Notes: generated by a model from the letters alone, not told the origin. A stretch of 64,000 bases of DNA from Candidatus Saliniplasma sp. (GCA_048622455.1 JBMCUO010000001.1:2437-66436); one strand, 5' to 3'; counted from the stretch's first letter, positions 13,352 to 33,559 are shown. Numbers and translations are program-made.

Positions 13352-14497
13352 ATGAGGTTTTTAGATTTTGATAAAATGAAAATAGGATTCGTGATCAACC
13401 CAATAGCAGGGATGGGCGGAAAAGTCGGCTTGAAGGGGACCGATGGAGTCTATGAAAAGGCCATAGAGTTGGGGGCTGAACCAGTCGCCCAAAAAAGGGC
13501 AGAAAAAGCGTTGGAGAAAATGGAGGAGGGGCACGAGTGGTATACGGCAGAAGGTATCATGGGAGAAGATTCGTTGAAAAAATTCTTCATGGAAGATGAT
13601 GTCCGAGTTGTTTACGAATCTATAGATGATGAGATAGGTCACACCAAAGCAAACGACACCCATCGGGCTGTGAGAGAATTTTTAAAAGAAGAGATAGATC
13701 TGATCGTTTTCTGCGGAGGAGACGGTACAGCTAGAGACGTTTTCGAGGAAGTCGGTACAGAAATACCGATATTAGGTATCCCTGCAGGGGTAAAGATGCA
13801 CAGTGGAGTTTTCGGTATAAATCCAGAGGCTAGCGCTCAGCTGTTCAATGATTTCATAGAGGGAGATGCAGATATCGGGACAGTAGAGATAATGGATCTA
13901 GATGAAGACAGATACAGAGAGGGGAATTGGGAGATCAAACTCCACGGAGAAGCACGGAGTATCTACGAGCCGCACTATATCCAGTTGGGTAAGCAAAGCT
14001 ACCGCTCGGTAGCGGAAGACGAGATGAAATACGATATAGCGAGCTACATCATAGAGGAGATGGAGTATTACCCAGACCATATATTTGTATTGGGTCCGGG
14101 ATCAACCACCGCTGAGATCCAGAAGATCTTAGATATAGATCATACTATATTAGGTGTAGATATATTAAAGAATAAAGAAATAGTCCAACTTGATGTGGCG
14201 GAGAAGGATATATTAAAAGCATCTGAAGATGTTGCTGGTATCAAGATAGTTGTTTCCATGATCGGTAATCAGGGTTTCTTCCTGGGACGTGGTAACCAGC
14301 AGATTAGTCCCGAAGTAGTGAAAAAGGCTGGACTGAACAATATCTATATCTTATCGACTCCTACTAAATTAAAGAAGACACCTTACCTTAGGGCGGACAC
14401 GGGTGATGATGAACTGGATAAAATGATCAGAGAAAAAGGGTACATGAAAGTCGTAAGAGCTTTCAGGGAGTACAGGCTCGTTAAAGTTCAAGTCTGA
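13352..14497 (+). CDS. ATP-NAD kinase/diacylglycerol-kinase-like catalytic domain protein (COG3199-like)
   Basis: MKIGFVINPIAGMGGKVGLKG and FCGGDGTARDV (GGDGT) motifs. Confidence 0.5.
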   Translation: MRFLDFDKMKIGFVINPIAGMGGKVGLKGTDGVYEKAIELGAEPVAQKRAEKALEKMEEGHEWYTAEGIMGEDSLKKFFMEDDVRVVYESIDDEIGHTKANDTHRAVREFLKEEIDLIVFCGGDGTARDVFEEVGTEIPILGIPAGVKMHSGVFGINPEASAQLFNDFIEGDADIGTVEIMDLDEDRYREGNWEIKLHGEARSIYEPHYIQLGKQSYRSVAEDEMKYDIASYIIEEMEYYPDHIFVLGPGSTTAEIQKILDIDHTILGVDILKNKEIVQLDVAEKDILKASEDVAGIKIVVSMIGNQGFFLGRGNQQISPEVVKKAGLNNIYILSTPTKLKKTPYLRADTGDDELDKMIREKGYMKVVRAFREYRLVKVQV

Positions 14498-15814: not shown

Positions 15815-16507
15815 TCACTTCCTAAACCTATAAATTATGTTATTTTCTAAAAAAATTCCGATTCGATTTACGGGCTTCTTTATAAACGGGTACTGAAATA
15901 GTGTAGGGACTAAAACCACTATAGCTGCTGCAAGTAAGTACCCGGCTATGATATCTGTGATATAATGAAAACCTACGAAAACCCTAGAGTAGGCAGTGAT
16001 AACTGAAGCTGTGGAAAATAAAATGAGGTAAGGCCAATGATGCTCTATTTCTTTGTAAGAACAGTATAATACATAAATACCGATGAAAACCGTGAAAGAC
16101 ATGGTAGCATGACCACTTGGGTAAGCGAAGCTAGACCTATAAAATAAAAAATAGCTTGGTCTTGTCCTGCCTATCAACAATTTCAATGAAGAGTAAGTGA
16201 TTAATGATGCTGCTACCATGGATAGATATGTTATCATTTTATGGTAAGATCTTTCTCTGATGAAAAATATTATTCCAGTTGCGAAGGTAAGATATATTGG
16301 GATATCAGTATAGTCAAATAATATGGTCATATCCCTAGGGAGCGATTCTGAATAGTTGACCATAAAATGCAATATAGATACATCTACAGAGTTTGTGAAA
16401 CCAAAAGACACAAGGCCGGTCAATATAGAAAATGAAATCATAAATGATAGGGCTAATACAAAATTTCTATATGCATATGATTTAGTAGAAGGACTTTTTT
16501 CCATCAA
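15815..16507 (-). CDS. PAP2-family (type 2 phosphatidic acid phosphatase) membrane phosphatase
   Basis: Three PAP2 signature motifs: KLLIGRTRPS, YPSGHA, SRVFVGFHYITD; multiple TM helices. Confidence 0.75.
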   Translation of the reverse strand: MMEKSPSTKSYAYRNFVLALSFMISFSILTGLVSFGFTNSVDVSILHFMVNYSESLPRDMTILFDYTDIPIYLTFATGIIFFIRERSYHKMITYLSMVAASLITYSSLKLLIGRTRPSYFLFYRSSFAYPSGHATMSFTVFIGIYVLYCSYKEIEHHWPYLILFSTASVITAYSRVFVGFHYITDIIAGYLLAAAIVVLVPTLFQYPFIKKPVNRIGIFLENNIIYRFRK

Positions 16508-19681: not shown

Positions 19682-20971
19682 TTGCAGGTATATAATATGG
19701 ATAAAAACGCAGCTATTCCGGAAGATGTAGACTCAGTGGCTTTGAAGTTCCTCGACTTGCAGGGTAGGATCAGGGAAATTCGTATAATACCAGACATGCT
19801 GGACATCATCCTTGAAGATGGTATGAGCTTTGACTCATCTAATGTGGGTTTTACAGACGTTTCAGAAAGCGACATGGTCGCTGTTCCCGATCCGGAAAGC
19901 TGTAGGATTTTAGAACTAGATAATGAGAAGATAGCTGTTTTTATATGTGAAATGCACTGGCCTGATGGAAAACTGTTCAAAGGTGATCCTCGGAATCTAT
20001 TGAGAACAACATTAAATGAATTGAAAGAGCAGGGGATCGATGTAAGAGTAAAGCCAGAATATGAATTTCACCTTTTGGATAAAGAAACTATAAAACCTAT
20101 AGATTCAGGCAGATATATCGACGGTAGGAGCGAATTTACTGAGATCGTAGGTAGATTGACAAGATTGGTAAGCAAGTTGGACATGAGAGTCGAGAAGATA
20201 CATCATGAGGCAGGTGCTGGTCAGTACGAAATTGAACCTATGCCTTATGATGATACCTTAAAGGCCGCCGACGATTTTATTTTCGTAAAAGATCTAGTGA
20301 AAAGAGAGGCTGAGAAACTCGGAGCTATCGCTACTTTCATGCCTAAACCGGTCATGGGCGACGCTGGTAACGGTATGCACGTTCATCTATCTCTTATCAA
20401 AGACGGGGAGTATCTTTTTTCTCCTGAAGAATTGAACTCAGAGGCGAAAGGTTTTGTGGGTGGTTTACTTGAACATGCTAAAGCACTTTCAGCCGTCTGC
20501 TCCCCTACGGTGAATTCTTATAGAAGACTGATACCCGGTTACGAAGCCCCGGTCTATATCTCGTGGGGCGGAGAAAACAGAAGTGTTCTTGTCAGGATAC
20601 CAGCTTATGGAAACAAGGAGGAATCAAAAGGCCGGGTAGAGTTCAGAGCCGGAGACGCTACAGCCAATATATACCTGATGTTGAATTCATTGATAAAAAC
20701 TGGCATGGATGGTATGGAAAGAGGTTTGGATCCAGGAGAGGAGTTAAAAGAGGATCTTTTCGAACTCGACATGGATGAGATCTGTGAAAGGGATATCAAA
20801 CTGCTGCCAGAAAGTCTCGAAGAAGCCCTTGACGAGCTGGAAAGGGATGAGGTAGTATCCGATTCGCTTGAAGAATCGTACGAACACTATCTAAGGTTGA
20901 AGAGAGAGGAGAGTCGTGACTTTAAAAGGACTGTAACGGATTGGGAATTAAATACATATTTGGAGTTCTAA
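19682..20971 (+). CDS. glnA: Glutamine synthetase (type I-like)
   Basis: FMPKPVMGDAGNGMHVHLSL, NSYRRLIPGYEAPVYISWGGENRSVLVRIP, 429 aa. Confidence 0.8.
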   Translation: MQVYNMDKNAAIPEDVDSVALKFLDLQGRIREIRIIPDMLDIILEDGMSFDSSNVGFTDVSESDMVAVPDPESCRILELDNEKIAVFICEMHWPDGKLFKGDPRNLLRTTLNELKEQGIDVRVKPEYEFHLLDKETIKPIDSGRYIDGRSEFTEIVGRLTRLVSKLDMRVEKIHHEAGAGQYEIEPMPYDDTLKAADDFIFVKDLVKREAEKLGAIATFMPKPVMGDAGNGMHVHLSLIKDGEYLFSPEELNSEAKGFVGGLLEHAKALSAVCSPTVNSYRRLIPGYEAPVYISWGGENRSVLVRIPAYGNKEESKGRVEFRAGDATANIYLMLNSLIKTGMDGMERGLDPGEELKEDLFELDMDEICERDIKLLPESLEEALDELERDEVVSDSLEESYEHYLRLKREESRDFKRTVTDWELNTYLEF

Positions 20972-25014: not shown

Positions 25015-25088
25015 GGGCTCATAGTCTAGTTGGTTATGATGTCGCCTTCACATGGCGGAGGTCGCCGGTTCGAATCCGGCTGAGCCCA
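25015..25088 (+). tRNA. tRNA-Val (anticodon CAC)
   Basis: 7-bp acceptor GGGCTCA/TGAGCCC + discriminator A. Anticodon arm TCGCC-TTCACAT-GGCGG. T arm GCCGG-TTCGAAT-CCGGC. 74 nt, CCA not encoded. Confidence 0.85.
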
Positions 25089-25108
25089 TTTTTTCACAAA
25101 AAATGGGC
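25084..25108 (+). terminator. Perfect 11-bp inverted repeat overlapping the tRNA-Val 3' end (GCCCATTTTTT-CAC-AAAAAATGGGC)
   Basis: Seen directly; T-run follows the tRNA as in archaeal terminators. Confidence 0.35.
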
Positions 25109-25221
25109 AGTTAGAATCTATGATTCTGACGAGCCCACTATACCCACTATAAAAGGGTATATTTTTAGTGGGGTAAGAGAATGCGCGAGTATTTTGTGTA
25201 TGCCGACTTGAGGTAGATAAG

Positions 25222-25917
25222 ATGAAAACCATAGGTTTGATAGGAGGTATGAGTTGGGAATCCACTCTAGAATATTATAGGATAGTGAATGAGGAAATGA
25301 AGAAAAAACTGGGAGAGGACCACTCTGGCGAACTGGCCATATATTCATTTGACTTTTATGACATCGTAAAACTCCAAGAAGAAGGAGATTGGAAAGTATT
25401 GGAAGATATGATGGTCAAAGCTGGAGAAGGACTCAAACATACTGGTGCTGACTTCCTGCTGATCTGTGCAAATACCATGAACAAGATGGCCGATAAAGTA
25501 GAACAAAGAGTTGGTTTACCTGTTATACACATCGGAGATGCCACCGCTGAAGTTATAAAAGAAAGGGGTATAGATACAGTTGGTCTGATCGGCACCAAGT
25601 ACGTTATGGAGGAGGATTTTTACAGAAGACGGTTGAAAGAAAGACATGATATCGATGTATTGATTCCTGATAAAAGTAACAGGAACAAAGTCCACGAAAT
25701 AATCTACAACGAGTTATGTAAAGGTGTAGTGAAAGAACCTTCGAAAAATAACCTTCTAGACATGATCGATGATCTGTTAGATAGAGGTGCGCAGGGTATA
25801 ATCCTTGGATGTACTGAGATACCTTTGTATATCTCTGAAGAAGAAGTTGGAAGTCCCCTATTCAATACTACTAAGATCCACGCTGAAGCCGCTGTAGATT
25901 ATGCATTAAAAGACTGA
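25222..25917 (+). CDS. Aspartate racemase (Asp/Glu/hydantoin racemase family)
   Basis: MKTIGLIGGMSWESTLEYYR N-terminus and the two conserved Cys-containing segments (LLICANTMN, ILGCTEIPL). Confidence 0.75.
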   Translation: MKTIGLIGGMSWESTLEYYRIVNEEMKKKLGEDHSGELAIYSFDFYDIVKLQEEGDWKVLEDMMVKAGEGLKHTGADFLLICANTMNKMADKVEQRVGLPVIHIGDATAEVIKERGIDTVGLIGTKYVMEEDFYRRRLKERHDIDVLIPDKSNRNKVHEIIYNELCKGVVKEPSKNNLLDMIDDLLDRGAQGIILGCTEIPLYISEEEVGSPLFNTTKIHAEAAVDYALKD

Positions 25918-26107
25918 TCGATCGAAGTGTATAACTTACGTAAGTATGCATACAAAACAGTTATATCCTAGTAAACCAAATCTAACATCCGTAAAAGATG
26001 AGGAAACATAAAGATATGCTCGATGATACCAATCTATCTACAAATATTAATCATAATTTTTTAGGAATATTAATATACCTAGTCACGATTATGCTTAGTA
26101 ATTTGAA

Positions 26108-26112
26108 GGAGG
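26108..26112 (+). promoter_or_regulatory. Shine-Dalgarno GGAGG 10 nt upstream of the cphB ATG
   Basis: gaaGGAGGtgtaaagaggATG. Confidence 0.45.
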
Positions 26113-26122
26113 TGTAAAGAGG

Positions 26123-26962
26123 ATGCCAAAAGGCCAGGTCGTCACTATAGGTGGCAATCTAGATTTCTTCCCAGAAGACCCTATAATAGTAGAATTTTTA
26201 AACAGGATCAGGGAAAATCTTGAACATTCTCCGATGATAGGTATCATCCCTTCTGCTAGTTTGAACCCTATAAGAACGGGAAAAAAATATTCTCACCTTT
26301 TCAGATGTGATGATATTCAAACCAAAGTGATATACCCAGAGGATCGTGAGGAAGCTAACAAAGAGAGTACTATAAGGGATATCGAAGACTGCGACGCTTT
26401 TTTCTTCACCGGTGGAAATCAACTTAGGATCACAGCTTTATTGGGCGGTACACAATCATTAAGAACTATCAAAGAGAAATTCGAGAACGGAGCGTTCATA
26501 GGGGGGACTAGTGCTGGGTCGGTGTGCCTTACCAGGACCATGATCGCTTACGGTAAGAGTAAAGAATCCTTACTACATGGTAAAGTTGAACTTTCTCCAG
26601 GCCTCAACATCATAGAAGATGCGGTCATAGATACACATTTCACAGCTCGAGGGAGATTCCCAAGGTTGGTACATGTTGTTACTGAACATCCCGGGATACT
26701 GGGAGTGGGATTAGGAGAGGATACAGCGGCTTTCTGGGATTTTGAAAAGAAGGAATTCTTTGTAGTAGGATCCAGGAACATAGTGGTGGTTGATGGAAAG
26801 GAGATAGGGCTATCCAGCGTTCCGCATATTAAGTACCGTGAGCCTATCTGTGTAGAGGGTATCATAGTCCATATATTGGGTAATGGCTGGGGTTTCGACC
26901 TCGAGAATAAAAAGCCTTATTTCAACGAGGATTTCAAAGTTACCCACCCAGAAGATTGGTGA
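26123..26962 (+). CDS. cphB: Cyanophycinase (peptidase S51)
   Basis: FFFTGGNQLRITALLGG and nucleophile segment FIGGTSAGSVCL match the CphB consensus (FFTGGDQLRI / GGTSAG); 279 aa. Confidence 0.8.
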   Translation: MPKGQVVTIGGNLDFFPEDPIIVEFLNRIRENLEHSPMIGIIPSASLNPIRTGKKYSHLFRCDDIQTKVIYPEDREEANKESTIRDIEDCDAFFFTGGNQLRITALLGGTQSLRTIKEKFENGAFIGGTSAGSVCLTRTMIAYGKSKESLLHGKVELSPGLNIIEDAVIDTHFTARGRFPRLVHVVTEHPGILGVGLGEDTAAFWDFEKKEFFVVGSRNIVVVDGKEIGLSSVPHIKYREPICVEGIIVHILGNGWGFDLENKKPYFNEDFKVTHPEDW

Positions 26963-26963
26963 T

Positions 26964-29612
26964 TCAGTTATTTTTCCTAAAGTTAAAAGGTCTGAGATCA
27001 GTTTTAGAACCGTTTTTAGATAATATTTTCAAGATATCCTGAGAGGTCACATCTAGGTCCGCAAATACCAATCTGTCGCCGGGCTTTCTATTTTGTAAAA
27101 CAAACTCAATTGCCTCATATTTATCAGATATCGATATAGGTACGTTACCATCGTTATCTAATACTCCCTGAGCCACCAGGTTACATGTTTCCCCATATTC
27201 CCTACCCCTGACAATCTCCTCATTTTCAGTACATATCACTATGTCGAACTTATCTGAGGCCTCTTTACCACACTGTTTTATAAATTCATCACTCCTATCC
27301 CCAGGGATGGTCAATGCGATTATCTTCCTACTGCCTGGCAGATGATCTGAATAATCACCTAATGCTTTGATTCCCTCGATATTATGCGCATAATCCAAAA
27401 CTATCAGAGAATCGTCCAATTCATAAGTATTAGCACGGCCAGGATTCATATCTTCATCCATGGAGAACACCTTCAATCTACGGATGATGTTTTTCATAGA
27501 TACACCAGAAGCATGACTTGCTGCGATTGCTGCCAACGTATTCTCCAACCACATCTTAACACCTCCCATCAGATATGGAATATCCGAGATATTCACTAGT
27601 TTCTTTCCTTCTCCCTCTTCGTATAATACTATACTAGAATCTTCCACGACTATTGTTTTGATACCTTGTTCGATAAATGAAGATATTTTATCATCTTTAT
27701 TCACAGCGAAAATAAATGGTATTCCTCTACATCTTTCAAGCAATCCATCTGCAAATTCGTCGTTCCCGTTGAAAACGCAGTATCCCTCTTTTTGAGTCGT
27801 TTCTAGAAGAAGAGATTTTACATGGAATATACCTTCTAAAGTTTCGATACCATCCATTCCCAAATGGTCCTTCTGAATATTCGTCACTACGCTAACCTTA
27901 GTTTTATCAAATCCAAGGCCACTCCTTAAGATGCCTCCCCTAGCTGTTTCGAGAACAGCGTATTCTACATCAGGATTGTCTAAAACCACTCGAGCACTCC
28001 AAGGCCCAGTGTTATCACCCTCCATTATCCTTTCACCATCAAGATATATGCCGCCTGTAACTGTCATACCAGTTTTGAAACCGACTCCTCTTGCGATCCA
28101 CTCGATGAGACGGACAGTAGTTGTCTTTCCGTTAGTTCCAGTAACTGCTATTAAAGGTATCCTACCATCTTTGTTAGGGTATAAATGATCTATCACATAT
28201 TCTCCAACATCTATGGGCTCACCTATGGCAGGGTCAGTGTGCATCCTGAGTCCAGGACTTGCGTTCACCTCTATTATACCCCATCTCATATCATCTGGGT
28301 GTTTGGTAACGTCTTCAGCGATGATATCTATCCCGACCATATCCATATCAATTACTTTACTAGCCCTCTCGATGATTTTTATCAATTCTGGATTTACACG
28401 ACCTGTATAATTCTCTGAGATCGCTCCTGTACTTAGGTTACCACCCACCCTAAGATAGACTTTTTCTCCTTTGTCGGGTACTGATTCAGGTATGAAACCT
28501 CGAGTTCTCAAGTATCTTTTCTCCTCCTTACCCAATCTGATAATGGTAAGAACGCCTTGATGCCCTTCACTTCTACGGGGATCCTCGTTTTCCTTTTCGA
28601 CCAGTTCCTCGATGGTAGATTCACCATCTCCAGTCACATGAGGGGGGATCCTCTTTGAAACGGCTTTTACTTCATCATCTATAACTAAAAACCTGAAATC
28701 ATCACCTGGGATATGCTCCTCTAAAAGTAATTTATCCGAGTATTGTTTCGAGATATCGTAGGCTTCCTCCAATTCGTCTTCATCGATTATATCCCCTATA
28801 ACACCCTTCCCTTGATGACCATCTACTGGTTTTATTATGACCGGATATCTGAGTGTTTTAGCGGCTTGGATAGCCTCTTCTTTGGAAGTCACCGTTTCAC
28901 CTTCTGGCACTGAAAAACCTGTTTCATGTAGGACCTTTTTAGTCAATAATTTGTCTTGTGCGATATCAGAGGATATCATGGATGTTTTGGAAGTCACCGG
29001 TCCCCAGATCCTCCTTTTTTTTACACCCCAACCCAAGGAGTAAAGGCTGTAGTCCTTATGAATATGTCGGAATGGGATATCATGTCGTTTGGCAGCATCT
29101 AAAATAGCTTTTGTACTCGGTCCCTTCTTACTCAGCATGTATACCTTACGGGCCTTTTTTATGATGCTGTTGACTTTACCTTTAAGACCCTCTTCTCCTT
29201 TTAGTATCAAATTGTATATTTCTACCGCCTTATCGAGAGCATGATCCACGAGTTCTTCATAATTGTATTCTATGATTAAGTTATAAACATTACCAGAGTC
29301 TTTACGACTTTTACCAAAAAATATTTCGTCTCCTGCCATATTTTGGATTGCTATAGCGATGTGTTCGATAACGTGTGTTGGATATGTTCCCTCATCGAGT
29401 CTCTCTAAAAATCCACCTTTGTAACCTGGAGAACAAGTATGATTTTTAATCTCCGGAAAGAAATTTACCAAGAGTTCTTTTATACGCTCATCAGACGGAA
29501 CATCTGTCATATCTCCTAGATCTAAGGTTACATCTAATACGGGAAAAAGAGCATGGATATTTGGCCCTTTAAGATAATTCTTCTTTATGATCCGTATCTC
29601 TTCATTGGACAT
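26964..29612 (-). CDS. cphA: Cyanophycin synthetase
   Basis: 882 aa. Central ATP-grasp domain. C-terminal Mur-ligase module with IPLIAVTGTNGKTTTVRLI P-loop and VLETARGGILRSGLGFD...NIQKDHLG. This architecture is diagnostic for CphA. Confidence 0.85.
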   Translation of the reverse strand: MSNEEIRIIKKNYLKGPNIHALFPVLDVTLDLGDMTDVPSDERIKELLVNFFPEIKNHTCSPGYKGGFLERLDEGTYPTHVIEHIAIAIQNMAGDEIFFGKSRKDSGNVYNLIIEYNYEELVDHALDKAVEIYNLILKGEEGLKGKVNSIIKKARKVYMLSKKGPSTKAILDAAKRHDIPFRHIHKDYSLYSLGWGVKKRRIWGPVTSKTSMISSDIAQDKLLTKKVLHETGFSVPEGETVTSKEEAIQAAKTLRYPVIIKPVDGHQGKGVIGDIIDEDELEEAYDISKQYSDKLLLEEHIPGDDFRFLVIDDEVKAVSKRIPPHVTGDGESTIEELVEKENEDPRRSEGHQGVLTIIRLGKEEKRYLRTRGFIPESVPDKGEKVYLRVGGNLSTGAISENYTGRVNPELIKIIERASKVIDMDMVGIDIIAEDVTKHPDDMRWGIIEVNASPGLRMHTDPAIGEPIDVGEYVIDHLYPNKDGRIPLIAVTGTNGKTTTVRLIEWIARGVGFKTGMTVTGGIYLDGERIMEGDNTGPWSARVVLDNPDVEYAVLETARGGILRSGLGFDKTKVSVVTNIQKDHLGMDGIETLEGIFHVKSLLLETTQKEGYCVFNGNDEFADGLLERCRGIPFIFAVNKDDKISSFIEQGIKTIVVEDSSIVLYEEGEGKKLVNISDIPYLMGGVKMWLENTLAAIAASHASGVSMKNIIRRLKVFSMDEDMNPGRANTYELDDSLIVLDYAHNIEGIKALGDYSDHLPGSRKIIALTIPGDRSDEFIKQCGKEASDKFDIVICTENEEIVRGREYGETCNLVAQGVLDNDGNVPISISDKYEAIEFVLQNRKPGDRLVFADLDVTSQDILKILSKNGSKTDLRPFNFRKNN

Positions 29613-29641: not shown

Positions 29642-29890
29642 TTAATCAGAGTCCAACAGCATTTTTTTTTCTACAAACGTATGTAGTTTTTGCTCATATA
29701 AGGGGCCATCGATATCAATCTCGAATTCTGTACGACAGAGTTTCATCATCCCTCTTACAAATTGATCTTCTAAATCTGGTGGAATACGTCTTCCGTGAAA
29801 GCCCATTTTATTTTTTTGAATCCGGTAAATGACTGGAATAACATACCCTAGTTTATCATTAAGTATACACTCTATATCTGACTCCACCAT
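29642..29890 (-). CDS. Hypothetical small protein
   Basis: ORF only. Confidence 0.25.
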   Translation of the reverse strand: MVESDIECILNDKLGYVIPVIYRIQKNKMGFHGRRIPPDLEDQFVRGMMKLCRTEFEIDIDGPLYEQKLHTFVEKKMLLDSD

Positions 29891-30020
29891 ATCACCATAC
29901 GGAAGGTATAATAGGTTATCAAGTTATTTTAACTTTTTTAATTATAGACCAATAAATATTAATCCTGTTATTTTTAGTAGCTTGATAAATTTAATAAACT
30001 ACCTCCTATGATATAGGTCC

Positions 30021-30479: not shown

Positions 30480-30788
30480 ATGAGAAAAATACCCGTATCA
30501 TTGATACTTCTAGGTTCTCTAATTGTTGGAGTGGGGCTAGTAGCGGTAGCCACGATGACAGGAGTTCTACCCATGAGAAACATATTAACAGGTTTCTATA
30601 CCTTTGTCTTCGGATTGGTCGTTATCTCCATATTGGCTATAATCGGTGCGGTGTTTTTCGGGATGTACATATCCCATAGGATATTCTCTACCCGCCAATT
30701 CACTACTTTTGAAGAAGAGATGCTCAAGATGAAAGATGATGTACAGGAGATCAAGAAAAAATTGGAAGAAAAAGACAAGAAAAACTAA
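30480..30788 (+). CDS. Small membrane protein (2 TM) with charged C-terminal helix
   Basis: Hydrophobic segments; 3-nt gap to the preceding gene. Confidence 0.35.
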   Translation: MRKIPVSLILLGSLIVGVGLVAVATMTGVLPMRNILTGFYTFVFGLVVISILAIIGAVFFGMYISHRIFSTRQFTTFEEEMLKMKDDVQEIKKKLEEKDKKN

Positions 30789-31777
30789 ACCAAAGATTCC
30801 GGACATATCTCCCGTCGGGAACAATTTCTGCATTTTCCTTTTCTATTATGGTTCCTGTGAACGTCCTCTGTTTGAAATATCTCCCTCATCTCTTCGAGCT
30901 TTTCTATTAACAGATCTTTCAACGAGTCGTCATATTCAACCTCGAACTCTTTTTCACCATACTTAACGATACCATATGGTGGTGCCTTACCAGTATCTTC
31001 TTCCATCAGTAAACAGTAAGCAGCGACCTGAAGTATATGTGAGAAAAAGGGTCCTTTGGGAACTCGGCCTGTTTTAATCTCCACTGGGATCCTTGTTTCG
31101 TTCTCCTTTACAACATAATCTGGTCTACCTCTTAATCGGTATTTATCAGAGGCGAACATCTTACTACTTTCTTCGTATAGATCAACGTAATCTACCTCTG
31201 CATCGGGCATGTGTAACTTTTCTTTTTTAGTTTTAACTTCTCTACCCAATGAAAGTGACCTTTTAAGCCAGTAGCTGGCCCCTATCAACCAGATCAAAGA
31301 GATAACTTGAGTTATCCTAGCTAGATAATCGTCCAATATAGGGAGTGTTATACTCATTATCCCTAAACCGGTAGCAACCATGGCAAAAACAAGTATCACA
31401 CGTTCAGACTTGAATTCATCCTCCTTGATAACACCCTTCTCACTCATAAAGAGTAAAAAAGTAGCCGCTAAAAGCCATATCAAAGCGTTCACTTGGAATA
31501 TCTGACTGAATATTTTTTCTGGTCTGATCAAAGTCAATCCAGCTATAGATAGAAAAGTTGCTGAAACAGCTAACCACAAGATGAGGTTTTCAATCCTCTT
31601 TGTAGCCTCCTCTTTTTCTTTGACCTCATCTATCTCTCCAGTTATTTTTTTATGTTCTTCCCTGCCCTCTTTTAGACTTTCGTTTATAACTTCCTTCTCA
31701 GACTCGTTCAACCACCAACTAAGAGGACAGTATCCATATTTTTCAACATCACTGGCCGATATCCAAGGTTCTCCCAT
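30785..31777 (-). CDS. Cas4-like PD-(D/E)XK nuclease with Fe-S cysteine tetrad and an inserted 4-helix membrane domain
   Basis: N-terminal ISASDVEKYGYCPLSWWL (first Cys). Core RGRPDYV...VEIKTG (D...ExK). QVAAYCLLMEE (QxxxY). C-terminal CRNCSRREICPE (CxxCx5C). Residues approx 65-180 form four hydrophobic helices. Confidence 0.6.
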   Translation of the reverse strand: MGEPWISASDVEKYGYCPLSWWLNESEKEVINESLKEGREEHKKITGEIDEVKEKEEATKRIENLILWLAVSATFLSIAGLTLIRPEKIFSQIFQVNALIWLLAATFLLFMSEKGVIKEDEFKSERVILVFAMVATGLGIMSITLPILDDYLARITQVISLIWLIGASYWLKRSLSLGREVKTKKEKLHMPDAEVDYVDLYEESSKMFASDKYRLRGRPDYVVKENETRIPVEIKTGRVPKGPFFSHILQVAAYCLLMEEDTGKAPPYGIVKYGEKEFEVEYDDSLKDLLIEKLEEMREIFQTEDVHRNHNRKGKCRNCSRREICPESLV

Positions 31778-31823: not shown

Positions 31824-32807
31824 TTAGAACATTTTTTGTATGTTTGAAGGTGAAAATACTCCTTTTTCGGTGATAAAACCAGTTATGTATTTTGATGGAG
31901 TAACGTCGAAGGCGGGGTTGCGTGCTGTTGAACCTTTTGGAATGATCTTGTTATCGTTTATATGGGAAACCTCTTCTTGATTTCTTTCCTCTATAGGTAT
32001 ATACCTTCCGTGTTGGATATCTTTATCGAAGGTGGTAACAGGAGCTGCAACATAGAATGGTATATCGTTCTCTTTAGCTACAACCGCTTTCTCATAGGTA
32101 CCTATCTTATTGGCGATATCTCCGTTAGCGACTATCCTATCTGTTCCTACGATAACCATATCGATATCACCTCTCTGCATGTAATGTCCGGCTGCATTGT
32201 CTACGATGACCGCATGTGAAATATCTTCGTTGTACAATTCCCATGCTGTGAGTCTAGCTCCCTGTAACCTTGGCCGGGTTTCATCAGCGTAAACAAAGAT
32301 ATCTTTTTCCTTAGCTGCTCTTATGGGCGCCAAAGCGGTACCGTAATCCACCGTAGCTAGGGCACCAGCGTTGCAGTGTGTTAGTATATTGTCTCCCCGG
32401 TTGATCAGCTCATTTCCATGCTGTCCTATAGACCTACATTTATCTACAACCGAGTCGACATATTTTTCTGCAGTTTTTATAGGGTCGTTCCCTGGATGTT
32501 TTAACATATAATCCACAGCGTAGAACAGGTCATAAGCCGTAGGTCTCGCTGACTTGATGATTTCAGCCGCTGATTCGGTTTGACCTTTTTCCAAAGCCTG
32601 CGCCATCCCGTAGGCCGCCGTAGCTCCTATCGCAGGTGCGCCGCGAACCATCATCTCCTTGATGGACCTTTTTATATCTTTGTGATCCTCAGCTTCGAAA
32701 TACCTCAACTCATGGGGCAGATATCTCTGATCTATCATCTTGACTAAGTTTCCATCCATCCAAACAGCCCTCATATCTTCGATCCCATCTTTTGTTTTAA
32801 CTTTCAT
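31824..32807 (-). CDS. mtnA: S-methyl-5-thioribose-1-phosphate isomerase (MtnA) / eIF-2B-family sugar-phosphate isomerase
   Basis: AVWMDGNLVKMIDQRYLP N-terminus and MMVRGAPAIGATAAYG motif. Confidence 0.7.
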   Translation of the reverse strand: MKVKTKDGIEDMRAVWMDGNLVKMIDQRYLPHELRYFEAEDHKDIKRSIKEMMVRGAPAIGATAAYGMAQALEKGQTESAAEIIKSARPTAYDLFYAVDYMLKHPGNDPIKTAEKYVDSVVDKCRSIGQHGNELINRGDNILTHCNAGALATVDYGTALAPIRAAKEKDIFVYADETRPRLQGARLTAWELYNEDISHAVIVDNAAGHYMQRGDIDMVIVGTDRIVANGDIANKIGTYEKAVVAKENDIPFYVAAPVTTFDKDIQHGRYIPIEERNQEEVSHINDNKIIPKGSTARNPAFDVTPSKYITGFITEKGVFSPSNIQKMF

Positions 32808-33559
32808 ATCTTCACCTCTTCGTAGGCTTCTAAAAGTTTAGGAACAGTTTTCATGTCTTGGAGTTCTTTTTCTTTTACCCATCTATACTCTATATTCTCC
32901 CAGTTAAGAACGGGATCGTTTTTAGTTTTGAATAGATAAGGGTGTACTTCCCATATCTTGTTCTCTCCTCTGGCAAGAACAACGTCCCCCTTTCTTATAA
33001 ATTCCACATCCATCCTGGTCTCCTCTCTGATCTCATTGACAGCCTGTTCTAACGGGTCTTTACTTTCCAGATATCCCGAGATCCCTGACCACCTTCCCTG
33101 AAAACTGCCTACCTGGTCTCCTCTCTTAACGACTAAAATTTTTCCTTCCCTAACGATGAAACTGGTCACCACGGGAGTGGATGTGATGTCGGGAAGTTCT
33201 AATTCCCCTGTTTTTCCGTTCAAGATGACCCTATCTTCGTTTTTTAGTAGTCCGATATCTATCTTGTCTATTAAAGGTATATCCGAGATGATAGCACCCG
33301 CCGCTACGATAGTTTCGGTCTCCTCATTCACTATAGCTCTAGGTGCACATCCATTCTTTTTTAGCTGATATATAACGTATGAACCAACCGTACTTCCTTT
33401 TCCCCTTGGAAATACGAATATAGAATCTGAGATATTGAATTTTTGAAATACAGTGCCAGAATCTGGATCCACGTCGCCCAGGAAAGACACCGGTTCTCGA
33501 ACTTTTACCACGTTTCCTTCTGCAGTTCCAGGTGACACTCCCCTTCCTTTCATGATCAA
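32804..33559 (-). CDS. Fusion protein: AcnX small (swivel, DUF126) subunit of phosphomevalonate dehydratase + C-terminal NUDIX hydrolase domain
   Basis: Residues 1-130 GRGVSPGTAEGNVVKV...FVFPRGKGSTVGSYVIYQL...GCAPRAIV match the AcnX small subunit. Residues approx 140-251 contain a Nudix box GYLESKDPLEQAVNEIREETRMD. Overlaps the upstream large subunit gene by 4 nt. Confidence 0.6.
   Translation of the reverse strand: MIMKGRGVSPGTAEGNVVKVREPVSFLGDVDPDSGTVFQKFNISDSIFVFPRGKGSTVGSYVIYQLKKNGCAPRAIVNEETETIVAAGAIISDIPLIDKIDIGLLKNEDRVILNGKTGELELPDITSTPVVTSFIVREGKILVVKRGDQVGSFQGRWSGISGYLESKDPLEQAVNEIREETRMDVEFIRKGDVVLARGENKIWEVHPYLFKTKNDPVLNWENIEYRWVKEKELQDMKTVPKLLEAYEEVKI

Follow-up and report, generated by a model that had tools for sequence, protein, structure and literature searches.

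The literature regards cyanophycin as a polymer of bacteria. Here we describe a gene pair for cyanophycin synthetase (cphA) and cyanophycinase (cphB) in a 64-kb stretch of DNA from Candidatus (Ca.) Saliniplasma, a member of the Thermoplasmatota (the whole stretch is called the window, and coordinates and strands refer to it). We consider it likely that the locus is a complete and functional module for making and breaking cyanophycin in a Thermoplasmatota archaeon, that it goes back to an ancient acquisition at the level of a clade, and that the racemase gene, the tRNA gene and the hairpin beside it are incidental. The enzymes themselves are canonical and the proteins have already been named by the NCBI pipeline; what is new is the archaeal clade, its gene order and the halophile setting. 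The module consists of the following features:

26123-26962, + strand: cphB, intracellular cyanophycinase, S51 peptidase, 279 aa (TIGR02069, PF03575)
26960-26966: tail-to-tail junction of cphB and cphA, stops 1 nt apart
26964-29612, - strand: cphA, cyanophycin synthetase 1, 882 aa (TIGR02068)
29133-29612, - strand: CphA N domain, approximately aa 1-160, holding the Cx19HxxEH site
28158-29132, - strand: CphA ATP-grasp G domain, approximately aa 161-485
26967-28157, - strand: CphA Mur-ligase-like M domain, approximately aa 486-882

The synthetase and the cyanophycinase

An earlier note, made from the sequence of this DNA, had read the 882-aa minus-strand protein as CphA, and this reading is borne out by profile searches and domain architecture. 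The protein scores 944.1 bits against TIGR02068 (curated cut-off 850) and 905.9 bits against NF010623 (cut-off 877), and its N, ATP-grasp and Mur-ligase domains are covered by the Pfam families PF18921 (Cyanophycin_syn, aa 28-137), PF08443 (RimK, aa 218-322), PF08245 (Mur_ligase_M, aa 490-698) and PF02875 (Mur_ligase_C, aa 726-850). MurE and RimK models reach only 70-100 bits, so that an assignment to MurE/RimK-type ligases, which the earlier note had named as the outcome that would speak against CphA, does not apply. The alignment with SuCphA1 of Synechocystis sp. UTEX2470 (PDB 7lg5) is colinear over residues 7-866 (565 bits). The convergent 279-aa cyanophycinase and the Asp/Glu-racemase-family gene upstream of cphB (25222-25917, + strand; TIGR00035, 225.4 bits) were likewise found as the note had described them, each of the three proteins scoring above its curated cut-off, and the motifs it had listed, i.e. 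GTNGKTTT, VLETARGGILRSGLGFD and DHLG for CphA, and FFTGGNQLRI and GGTSAGS for CphB, are all present in the translations. The cphB stop codon TGA occupies 26960-26962 and that of cphA (TCA, the reverse complement of TGA) 26964-26966, leaving one base between them, in agreement with the 1-bp spacing given in the note.

Mutagenesis and cryo-EM have defined the CphA1 residues to which ATP, the next Asp and the C-terminus of the polymer bind (PMC9427784; PMC9262961), and those listed below proved essential when mutated. The residues of the Trichodesmium and Synechocystis enzymes (TeCphA1 and SuCphA1) correspond to those of the window protein as follows: K220 to K221, K261 to K261, R309 to R307, R323 to R321, N394 to N392, S396 to S394, E450 to E448, G456 to G454, R458 to R456, N497 to N494, D585/H586 to D582/H583, R731 to R726, and H748 to H743. 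The mapped residues from K221 to H743 fall in invariant or near-invariant columns (the G-domain set is invariant or at least 90% conserved), and the P-loop of the M domain, GTNGKTTT with K496, has the GxxGKT form. In the N domain the Cx19HxxEH site is intact (C60, H80, E83 and H84, exactly 19 residues separating the Cys from the first His). This site marks primer-independent CphA1s and is found in 83% of CphA1s (PMC9262961); because it is retained, the window CphA1 would be expected to be primer-independent. Three CphAs of the archaeal clade described below have lost it (P0004, P0005 of locus L084, and P0040 of locus L087) and are therefore predicted to be primer-dependent, P0005 even though its gene occupies the syntenic position that cphA has in the window.

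The cyanophycinase scores 193.5 bits against TIGR02069 (curated cut-off 126.6) and aligns to the structures from Acinetobacter baylyi (7uqv) and Synechocystis (3en0). Its catalytic triad Ser130-His172-Glu199 and the pocket residues Gln100, Asp170, Arg176, Arg178 and Arg181 are invariant across 57 CphBs; the context of the Ser nucleophile, whose absence the earlier note had set as a refutation, is thus present. Position 171 is Thr in place of Gln173 of the Synechocystis pocket, and Thr is also found there in 15 of 51 bacterial sequences. No signal-like hydrophobic segment was detected at the N-terminus, and the enzyme is therefore assigned to the intracellular type. As judged from the conserved residues, all three active sites of CphA1 and the active site of CphB are intact.

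Both genes are under purifying selection: the ratio of nonsynonymous to synonymous substitution rates (dN/dS) is 0.147 for cphA and 0.113 for cphB, and 0.08-0.20 for neighbouring housekeeping genes. When the same genome pairs are compared (L082, L084 and L092 against the window), CphB is 84-87% identical and CphA 66-71%; judging by the higher identity of CphB, the hydrolase appears more tightly constrained than the synthetase.

The archaeal host and an archaeal clade of cyanophycin genes

Archaeal marker families lie on both sides of the module. In a Pfam/NCBIfam scan of about 50 open reading frames (ORFs) of the window (the set leaves out an ORF of 2684 aa and a few small ones), Endo_dU, PTH2, DUF1616, PF01877, AcnX with its swivel subunit, DUF63, an archaeal-type GlmU and an ADP-forming ACS alpha subunit were detected. 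The nearest relatives of the window CphA are NCBI-annotated cyanophycin synthetases from metagenome-assembled genomes of Ca. Saliniplasma or Thermoplasmatota, and a small ORF adjoining cphA encodes a protein 100% identical to one on a 68.7-kb NCBI contig of Ca. Saliniplasma. The genus belongs to the proposed order Halarchaeoplasmatales, known from soda-saline lake sediment and predicted to follow a salt-in strategy (PMC11332174).

The gene order around the module is conserved in relatives (loci L082, L083, L084 and L092). One flank of cphAB reads AcnX / AcnX-swivel-NUDIX / MtnA / Cas4-like / two small ORFs / orf82, and the other tRNA-Val / PF01877 / CNNM / DUF1616 / PTH2 / Endo_dU / FTR-rubredoxin / glutaredoxin / glutamine synthetase / SHMT. 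This order recurs in GCA_048623815.1, GCA_046497075.1, GCA_051745305.1 and JGI 3300027784, as well as in the soda-lake sediment contig SL_5KL_010_SED and the Logan assemblies SRR21542049 and SRR21542050. The archaeal context that the earlier note had recognized is therefore confirmed by the markers as well as by collinearity with Ca. Saliniplasma and other Thermoplasmatota genomes.

The relationship of the window CphA to other synthetases was analysed in a neighbour-joining (NJ) distance tree of 117 sequences, which is unrooted and whose bacterial side consists of the closest matches only. The 43 closest CphAs (44-96% identity to the window protein, several of them labelled Thermoplasmatota, one by way of a cluster look-up) form one bipartition in 60/60 NJ bootstraps, within which the window CphA and five close relatives make up a sub-clade, again in 60/60. 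Sequences within the rest of the archaeal clade share a median identity of 0.51, against 0.44 for the sampled bacterial sequences among themselves and 0.37-0.38 for archaeal-bacterial comparisons, and on account of these values the archaeal clade is regarded as deep. The genes around four of its deep members are archaeal (TFIIB, Gar1 and S3Ae at L085; S3Ae and Trm1 at L086; RNA polymerase Rpb2/Rpb5 at L087). In three of four deep members cphB adjoins cphA, the two genes being tail-to-tail in L086-L088. The CphB sequences show the same division: the window protein is 84-87% identical to the CphBs of syntenic relatives and 49-53% identical to those of deep members, and shares no more than 37% with bacterial ones, and the archaeal CphBs form a clade in 100/100 bootstraps. 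The comparison with bacterial homologues thus places both proteins in archaeal clades apart from bacteria.

Gene order follows the same line. A cphB gene downstream of and convergent with cphA was found at 6/6 archaeal loci and at 0/53 bacterial loci among the matches listed; the 53 bacterial loci have cphB upstream and divergent (26), upstream and co-oriented (23) or downstream and co-oriented (4). These bacterial loci are the matches listed by an alignment search of genome contigs, and served as outgroups and for the gene-order counts, not for archaeal synteny; a single-protein search of genome contigs found nothing. Acidity, too, is higher in the archaeal CphAs than in those of bacteria (Asp plus Glu 16.4% vs 13.1%; mean isoelectric point (pI) 5.1-5.2 vs 6.0). 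Taken together, the two clades, the clade-specific gene order and the acidity indicate one ancient acquisition followed by a long and largely vertical residence, and the transfer, given the much wider distribution in bacteria, presumably went from bacteria to archaea. One further sequence, P0008, is a CphA of about 909 aa labelled Ca. Saliniplasma that is only 50% identical to the window CphA; two divergent CphA lineages therefore stand under one genus label, whether by paralogy, transfer within the phylum or loose taxonomy.

Several neighbours of the module were noted in passing. The ORF upstream of cphA is listed here:

29642-29890, - strand: orf82, conserved helical protein, 82 aa, 29 nt upstream of cphA

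Its orthologues in L082, L083 and L084 occupy the same position with 63-67% identity, and dN/dS is 0.12, on which grounds orf82 is a real gene; it is probably co-transcribed with cphA. It is confined to a Saliniplasma-level group. No Pfam or NCBIfam match was found, and among 1.8 billion representatives there are only four remote relatives, one of them a low-complexity protein of 1065 aa. The structural model is a four-helix protein of low confidence (predicted local distance difference test score, pLDDT, 69), and it gave no fold match. Farther out, a glutamine synthetase gene (19682-20971, + strand) is about 4 kb distant from the module, and the block to which it belongs is conserved in L082, L084 and L092; its closeness to genes for nitrogen storage may be coincidental. 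A stand-alone Cas4-like PD-(D/E)XK protein of 330 aa (30785-31777, - strand; TIGR00372, 97 bits, cut-off 65) has a long N-terminal half that the nuclease models do not match and is found beside MtnA in all relatives; neither CRISPR nor further cas genes turned up among its neighbours. A NUDIX domain is joined in one protein to the small (swivel) subunit of the AcnX-type phosphomevalonate dehydratase (32804-33559, - strand). L082 and L083 have the same fusion; at this position in L084 the only gene called is a NUDIX gene of 127 aa.

The tRNA-Val end, the racemase and alternative explanations

Between cphB and the rest of the conserved flank lie the tRNA gene, right after which the earlier note had the module start, and the features next to it:

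25015-25088, + strand: tRNA-Val(CAC), predicted by ARAGORN, conserved in L082, L084, L091, L092 and L093
25089-25134, + strand: insert of about 40 nt (25089-25127) with a hairpin arm and loop, then GAGCCCA (25128-25134), a pseudo-3' end of the tRNA
25222-25917, + strand: YgeA/RacX-type amino-acid racemase, independent of pyridoxal phosphate, 231 aa (TIGR00035; Ala83/Cys197)
25918-26122, + strand: A/T-rich spacer of 205 nt between the racemase gene and cphB, with a GGAGGTG ribosome-binding site ahead of the cphB start

The 11-bp hairpin reported at the tRNA 3' end is real: it reads GCCCATTTTTT-CAC-AAAAAATGGGC, with a folding energy (dG) of -14.3 kcal/mol and z = -3.5 against shuffled sequences. 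It overlaps the tRNA 3' end, and the insert supplies one arm and the loop. The inserted nucleotides stand between the true tRNA 3' end and the GAGCCCA duplicate; from 25128 on, the window aligns with the tRNA 3' end and flank of L092 and L082. The content of the slot from cphB to the tRNA gene differs from genome to genome:

Window, 25089-26122, and also L094: racemase
L082, 13476-16342: 155-aa ORF, Fe-ADH and racemase
L084, 11280-13602: aldehyde:ferredoxin oxidoreductase (AFOR)
L092, 2002-2275: empty, about 275 nt

In L084 a 12-nt duplicate of the tRNA end (13497-13508) lies 96 nt downstream, and partial copies are found 55-60 nt downstream in L082 (about 16270-16290) and L092 (about 2225-2240). 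These duplicates in four genomes, with short inserts that differ, resemble the traces that repeated rounds of integration and excision would leave. In the more distant L093 (CNNM 62% identical) the tRNA gene and the right flank are kept, and beyond the tRNA an LSM-like ORF and an MGMT-endonuclease V fusion are found instead. Because the content of the slot varies, tRNA-end duplicates are present and synteny with L093 breaks at this point, the tRNA-Val gene, a conserved landmark, is a synteny breakpoint and a local recombination hotspot, for the small slot only.

The racemase scores 225.4 bits against TIGR00035 (cut-off 93.1) and 266 bits against PRK10200, the YgeA equivalog, which is under the cut-off of 417. 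Its best structural relatives are 3ojc (264 bits) and E. coli YgeA (EcL-DER, 5hqt/5ell; 5hqt 233 bits), with which it aligns free of gaps over 229 residues and shares Cys197; the match to Pyrococcus AspR (1jfl) is weak (78 bits). Cys197 is present in 47/47 homologues and Ala83 in 33/47, position 83 being Ala here, Thr in YgeA and Cys in classical aspartate racemases. A classical two-cysteine aspartate racemase is thereby ruled out, only Cys197 being present together with Ala83, and by fold, Thr/Ala83 and Cys197, and TIGR00035 the protein fits the YgeA/RacX-type profile. Its Ala83/Cys197 pair matches Ala79/Cys193 of RacX from Halocola ammonii, an enzyme shown experimentally to be an active, bidirectional racemase of broad specificity that includes basic amino acids such as Lys (PMC12838360). 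At L089 (5990-8696, Ca. Natronoplasma) an orthologue stands beside an Amidohydro_1 protein and a PCMT-like methyltransferase. The Amidohydro_1 protein was considered as an isoaspartyl dipeptidase and rejected, having no IadA-type NCBIfam match and only weak generic amidohydrolase matches; the amidohydrolase at L087 is a TRZ/ATZ-type deaminase.

The spacer ahead of cphB is probably a separate promoter region for that gene (25918-26122). A 34-nt A/T-rich direct repeat on the + strand (26042-26075 and 29954-29987; 71% identity, sharing AAATATTAATC) has one copy upstream of cphB and the other in the intergenic region from which orf82/cphA and orf151 diverge. A promoter or operator element common to the two sites is conceivable, as is chance; with 71% identity and two copies only, it was set aside as a possible chance match. 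Scans for bacterial sigma-70 promoters and intrinsic terminators gave no more sites than shuffled sequences, these models not being applicable to archaea.

The composition of the three genes was compared with that of window ORFs of at least 200 aa (n = 34), for which the median GC content at third codon positions (GC3) is 0.426 with a standard deviation of 0.045; RSCU stands for relative synonymous codon usage:

cphA: GC3 0.357, RSCU-distance rank 10 of 34
cphB: GC3 0.419, RSCU-distance rank 26 of 34
racemase: GC3 0.377, RSCU-distance rank 28 of 34

Since cyanophycin genes otherwise come from bacteria and this DNA from a metagenome assembly, a bacterial fragment mis-joined into an archaeal contig by assembly or binning might be suspected. 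The identical order with archaeal genes on either side, seen in at least six independent assemblies, excludes chimerism or contamination, and the composition of the module is host-like; the chance of such an artefact is negligible, and the bacterial or chimeric contig that the earlier note had named as a refutation is not what was found. The same note had raised the tRNA-Val gene as an island boundary; on a recent-island reading, cphA, cphB and the racemase gene would have arrived together by integration at the tRNA 3' end. The integration-like footprints there (L084, L082, L092 and the window GAGCCCA), the break of synteny with L093 exactly at the tRNA and the differing gene content beside it are what such an event could leave. 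The duplicates, however, enclose tens of nucleotides and not the module, and cphA-cphB stays in place in genomes with a CphA of only 66-71% identity, the variation being in the stretch from cphB to the tRNA. GC, GC3, RSCU distance and pI of all three genes are within the window's own range, their acidic pI being typical of it, so that the comparison of GC and codon usage proposed in the note revealed no anomaly. No second copy of the tRNA 3' 19-mer was found in the 64-kb window with up to three mismatches allowed, and no integrase family was matched among the ORFs scanned in or near the region. All five relatives examined (L082, L083, L084, L092 and L094) carry cphAB in the same slot. A recent island is therefore very improbable, and of the horizontal acquisition suggested in the note, the part that stands is an ancient clade-level transfer, if the genes came from bacteria.

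It is only slightly less improbable that the racemase works together with the cyanophycin enzymes, supplying or removing D-Asp or D-Arg or epimerising beta-Asp-Arg. In the window and in L094 its gene adjoins cphB and has the same orientation, in L082 it is close by, and its Ala/Cys active site is of the type of the broad-specificity RacX, which acts on basic amino acids. Yet it adjoins cphB only in the species-level group of the window (window, L001 and L094), is two genes off in L082, and is missing near cphAB in L084 (AFOR instead), in L092 and in the deeper archaeal loci L085-L088; among the matches listed, 0/80 bacterial loci have a racemase gene within 8 kb of cphA. Orthologues at L090 (79%) and L089 (70%) have no cphAB nearby and stand in ribosomal, ECF-transporter or isoprenoid-lipid gene contexts, members of the family are common in Thermoplasmatota and occur as far as Archaeoglobus (55% identity), the 205-nt spacer separates the two genes, and cyanophycin is made of L-Asp and L-Arg according to the literature. 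The racemase is an occupant of the variable slot, not a conserved part of the cyanophycin module. The processing of D-Asp or beta-dipeptides by a racemase partner and the tRNA-bounded island, two attractive ideas, are thus unsupported. Unlikely, but less so than either of these, is a synthetase whose product is not classical insoluble Asp-Arg cyanophycin (it could be soluble or contain Lys in a high-salt cytoplasm), or whose G domain is impaired by Gln in place of His267. The window CphA reads G-H-Q-G at the P-loop of this domain, with Gln (codon CAA) at 267, as does its 96% identical relative. His267 stabilises the acyl-phosphate, and H267A abolishes or reduces the activity of SuCphA1 and TeCphA1 and serves as the G-domain-dead mutant (PMC9427784; PMC9262961). 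Gln267 occurs in 2/43 sequences of the archaeal clade only (window and P0001); the host order is predicted to be salt-in, and CphA and CphB are acid-shifted. Gln is, on the other hand, the majority state in the closest bacterial CphA1 homologues sampled (60/74), so that His267 does not define the family; the other residues binding Asp, ATP and polymer are all conserved in the window CphA, and the Gln lineage has kept a cphA with dN/dS of 0.147 and its cognate cphB. From the bacterial majority and the dN/dS value, Gln267 is treated as natural variation and was rejected as a disabling change, with a caveat that stays.

Some observations weigh against a functional archaeal module of ancient origin. 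The window CphA does not carry at position 267 the His that is present in all five solved CphA1 sequences. The tree is an unrooted distance tree built on the closest bacterial matches, from which the direction and number of transfers can only be inferred, and only some of the 43 clade members have a taxon label or a checked context. No beta-Asp-Arg dipeptidase (IadA, IaaA or CphZ) was found among the roughly 50 ORFs scanned in the window, which covers just 64 kb and so says little about the genome as a whole; according to the census of cyanophycin genes, dipeptidase genes in bacteria, too, often lie apart or go unrecognised. Finally, the literature searched reports cyanophycin biochemistry in no archaeon. 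A complete module of ancient acquisition nevertheless remains the reading we prefer.

Proposed function and comparison with known systems

By analogy with the bacterial enzymes, CphA1 would polymerise L-Asp and L-Arg at the expense of ATP. The G domain would phosphorylate the polymer C-terminus and add L-Asp to the poly-Asp backbone, the M domain would join L-Arg to each Asp beta-carboxylate, and the metallopeptidase-like Cx19HxxEH site of the N domain would trim nascent polymer into primers. CphB, a serine peptidase of the cytoplasm, would cleave the polymer into beta-Asp-Arg dipeptides, and a dipeptidase encoded elsewhere would complete the degradation. The nearest T5 runs of cphA and cphB lie inside the opposite gene, and the 3' ends of the two transcripts therefore probably overlap; if so, the antisense overlap might help to keep synthesis and degradation apart, a speculation from the conserved arrangement. 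We propose, tentatively and at a little under even chances, that Thermoplasmatota including salt-in halophiles make cyanophycin and remobilise it as an intracellular nitrogen and carbon reserve by means of an acid-adapted enzyme pair, acquired long ago and inherited vertically; its tail-to-tail order would render synthesis and degradation mutually exclusive through overlapping antisense transcripts, orf82 possibly helping.

If this is true, Archaea would for the first time be shown to have such a polymer, and with this locus a strategy of nitrogen storage would reach into Archaea and into hypersaline soda-lake sediments. Only bacterial genomes went into the main census of cyanophycin genes, and no paper in the literature searched couples a cyanophycin synthetase with Thermoplasmatota or reports archaeal synthesis of the polymer. 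The earlier note's claim that cyanophycin metabolism has had no biochemical demonstration in archaea is consistent with this literature, including the paper on Culexarchaeia, which notes archaeal cyanophycinase homologues and states that experimental evidence is absent (PMC9723716). The question of archaeal cyanophycin can now be addressed by a direct expression experiment, and an acid-shifted, probably salt-tolerant and primer-independent CphA1 may be of interest for the biotechnological production of the polymer.

Compared with bacterial CphA1 (SuCphA1, 7lg5; TeCphA1, 7wac), the window CphA has the same length class, the same N-G-M architecture, both ligase sites and Cx19HxxEH. It differs in its low identity to any bacterial sequence (about 37-40%), its place in a separate clade known from Thermoplasmatota as far as members are labelled or checked, Gln in place of His267, its acidity, and a gene convergent with cphB, whereas bacterial cphA lies downstream of cphB or divergent from it. 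Likewise, the window CphB shares with bacterial CphB (Synechocystis 3en0/7uqw; A. baylyi 7uqv) the S51 fold family, the catalytic triad, Gln100, Asp170 and the three Arg residues; it is at most 37% identical to those sampled and belongs to its own archaeal clade. The nearest parallels within the archaea are the predicted cyanophycinases of Culexarchaeia and of a few Euryarchaea and Asgard archaea, which are also S51 homologues (PMC9723716). They stand without a synthetase and have been read as scavenging enzymes, whereas the cphB of the window is paired with a synthetase, which implies endogenous synthesis and turnover of the polymer.

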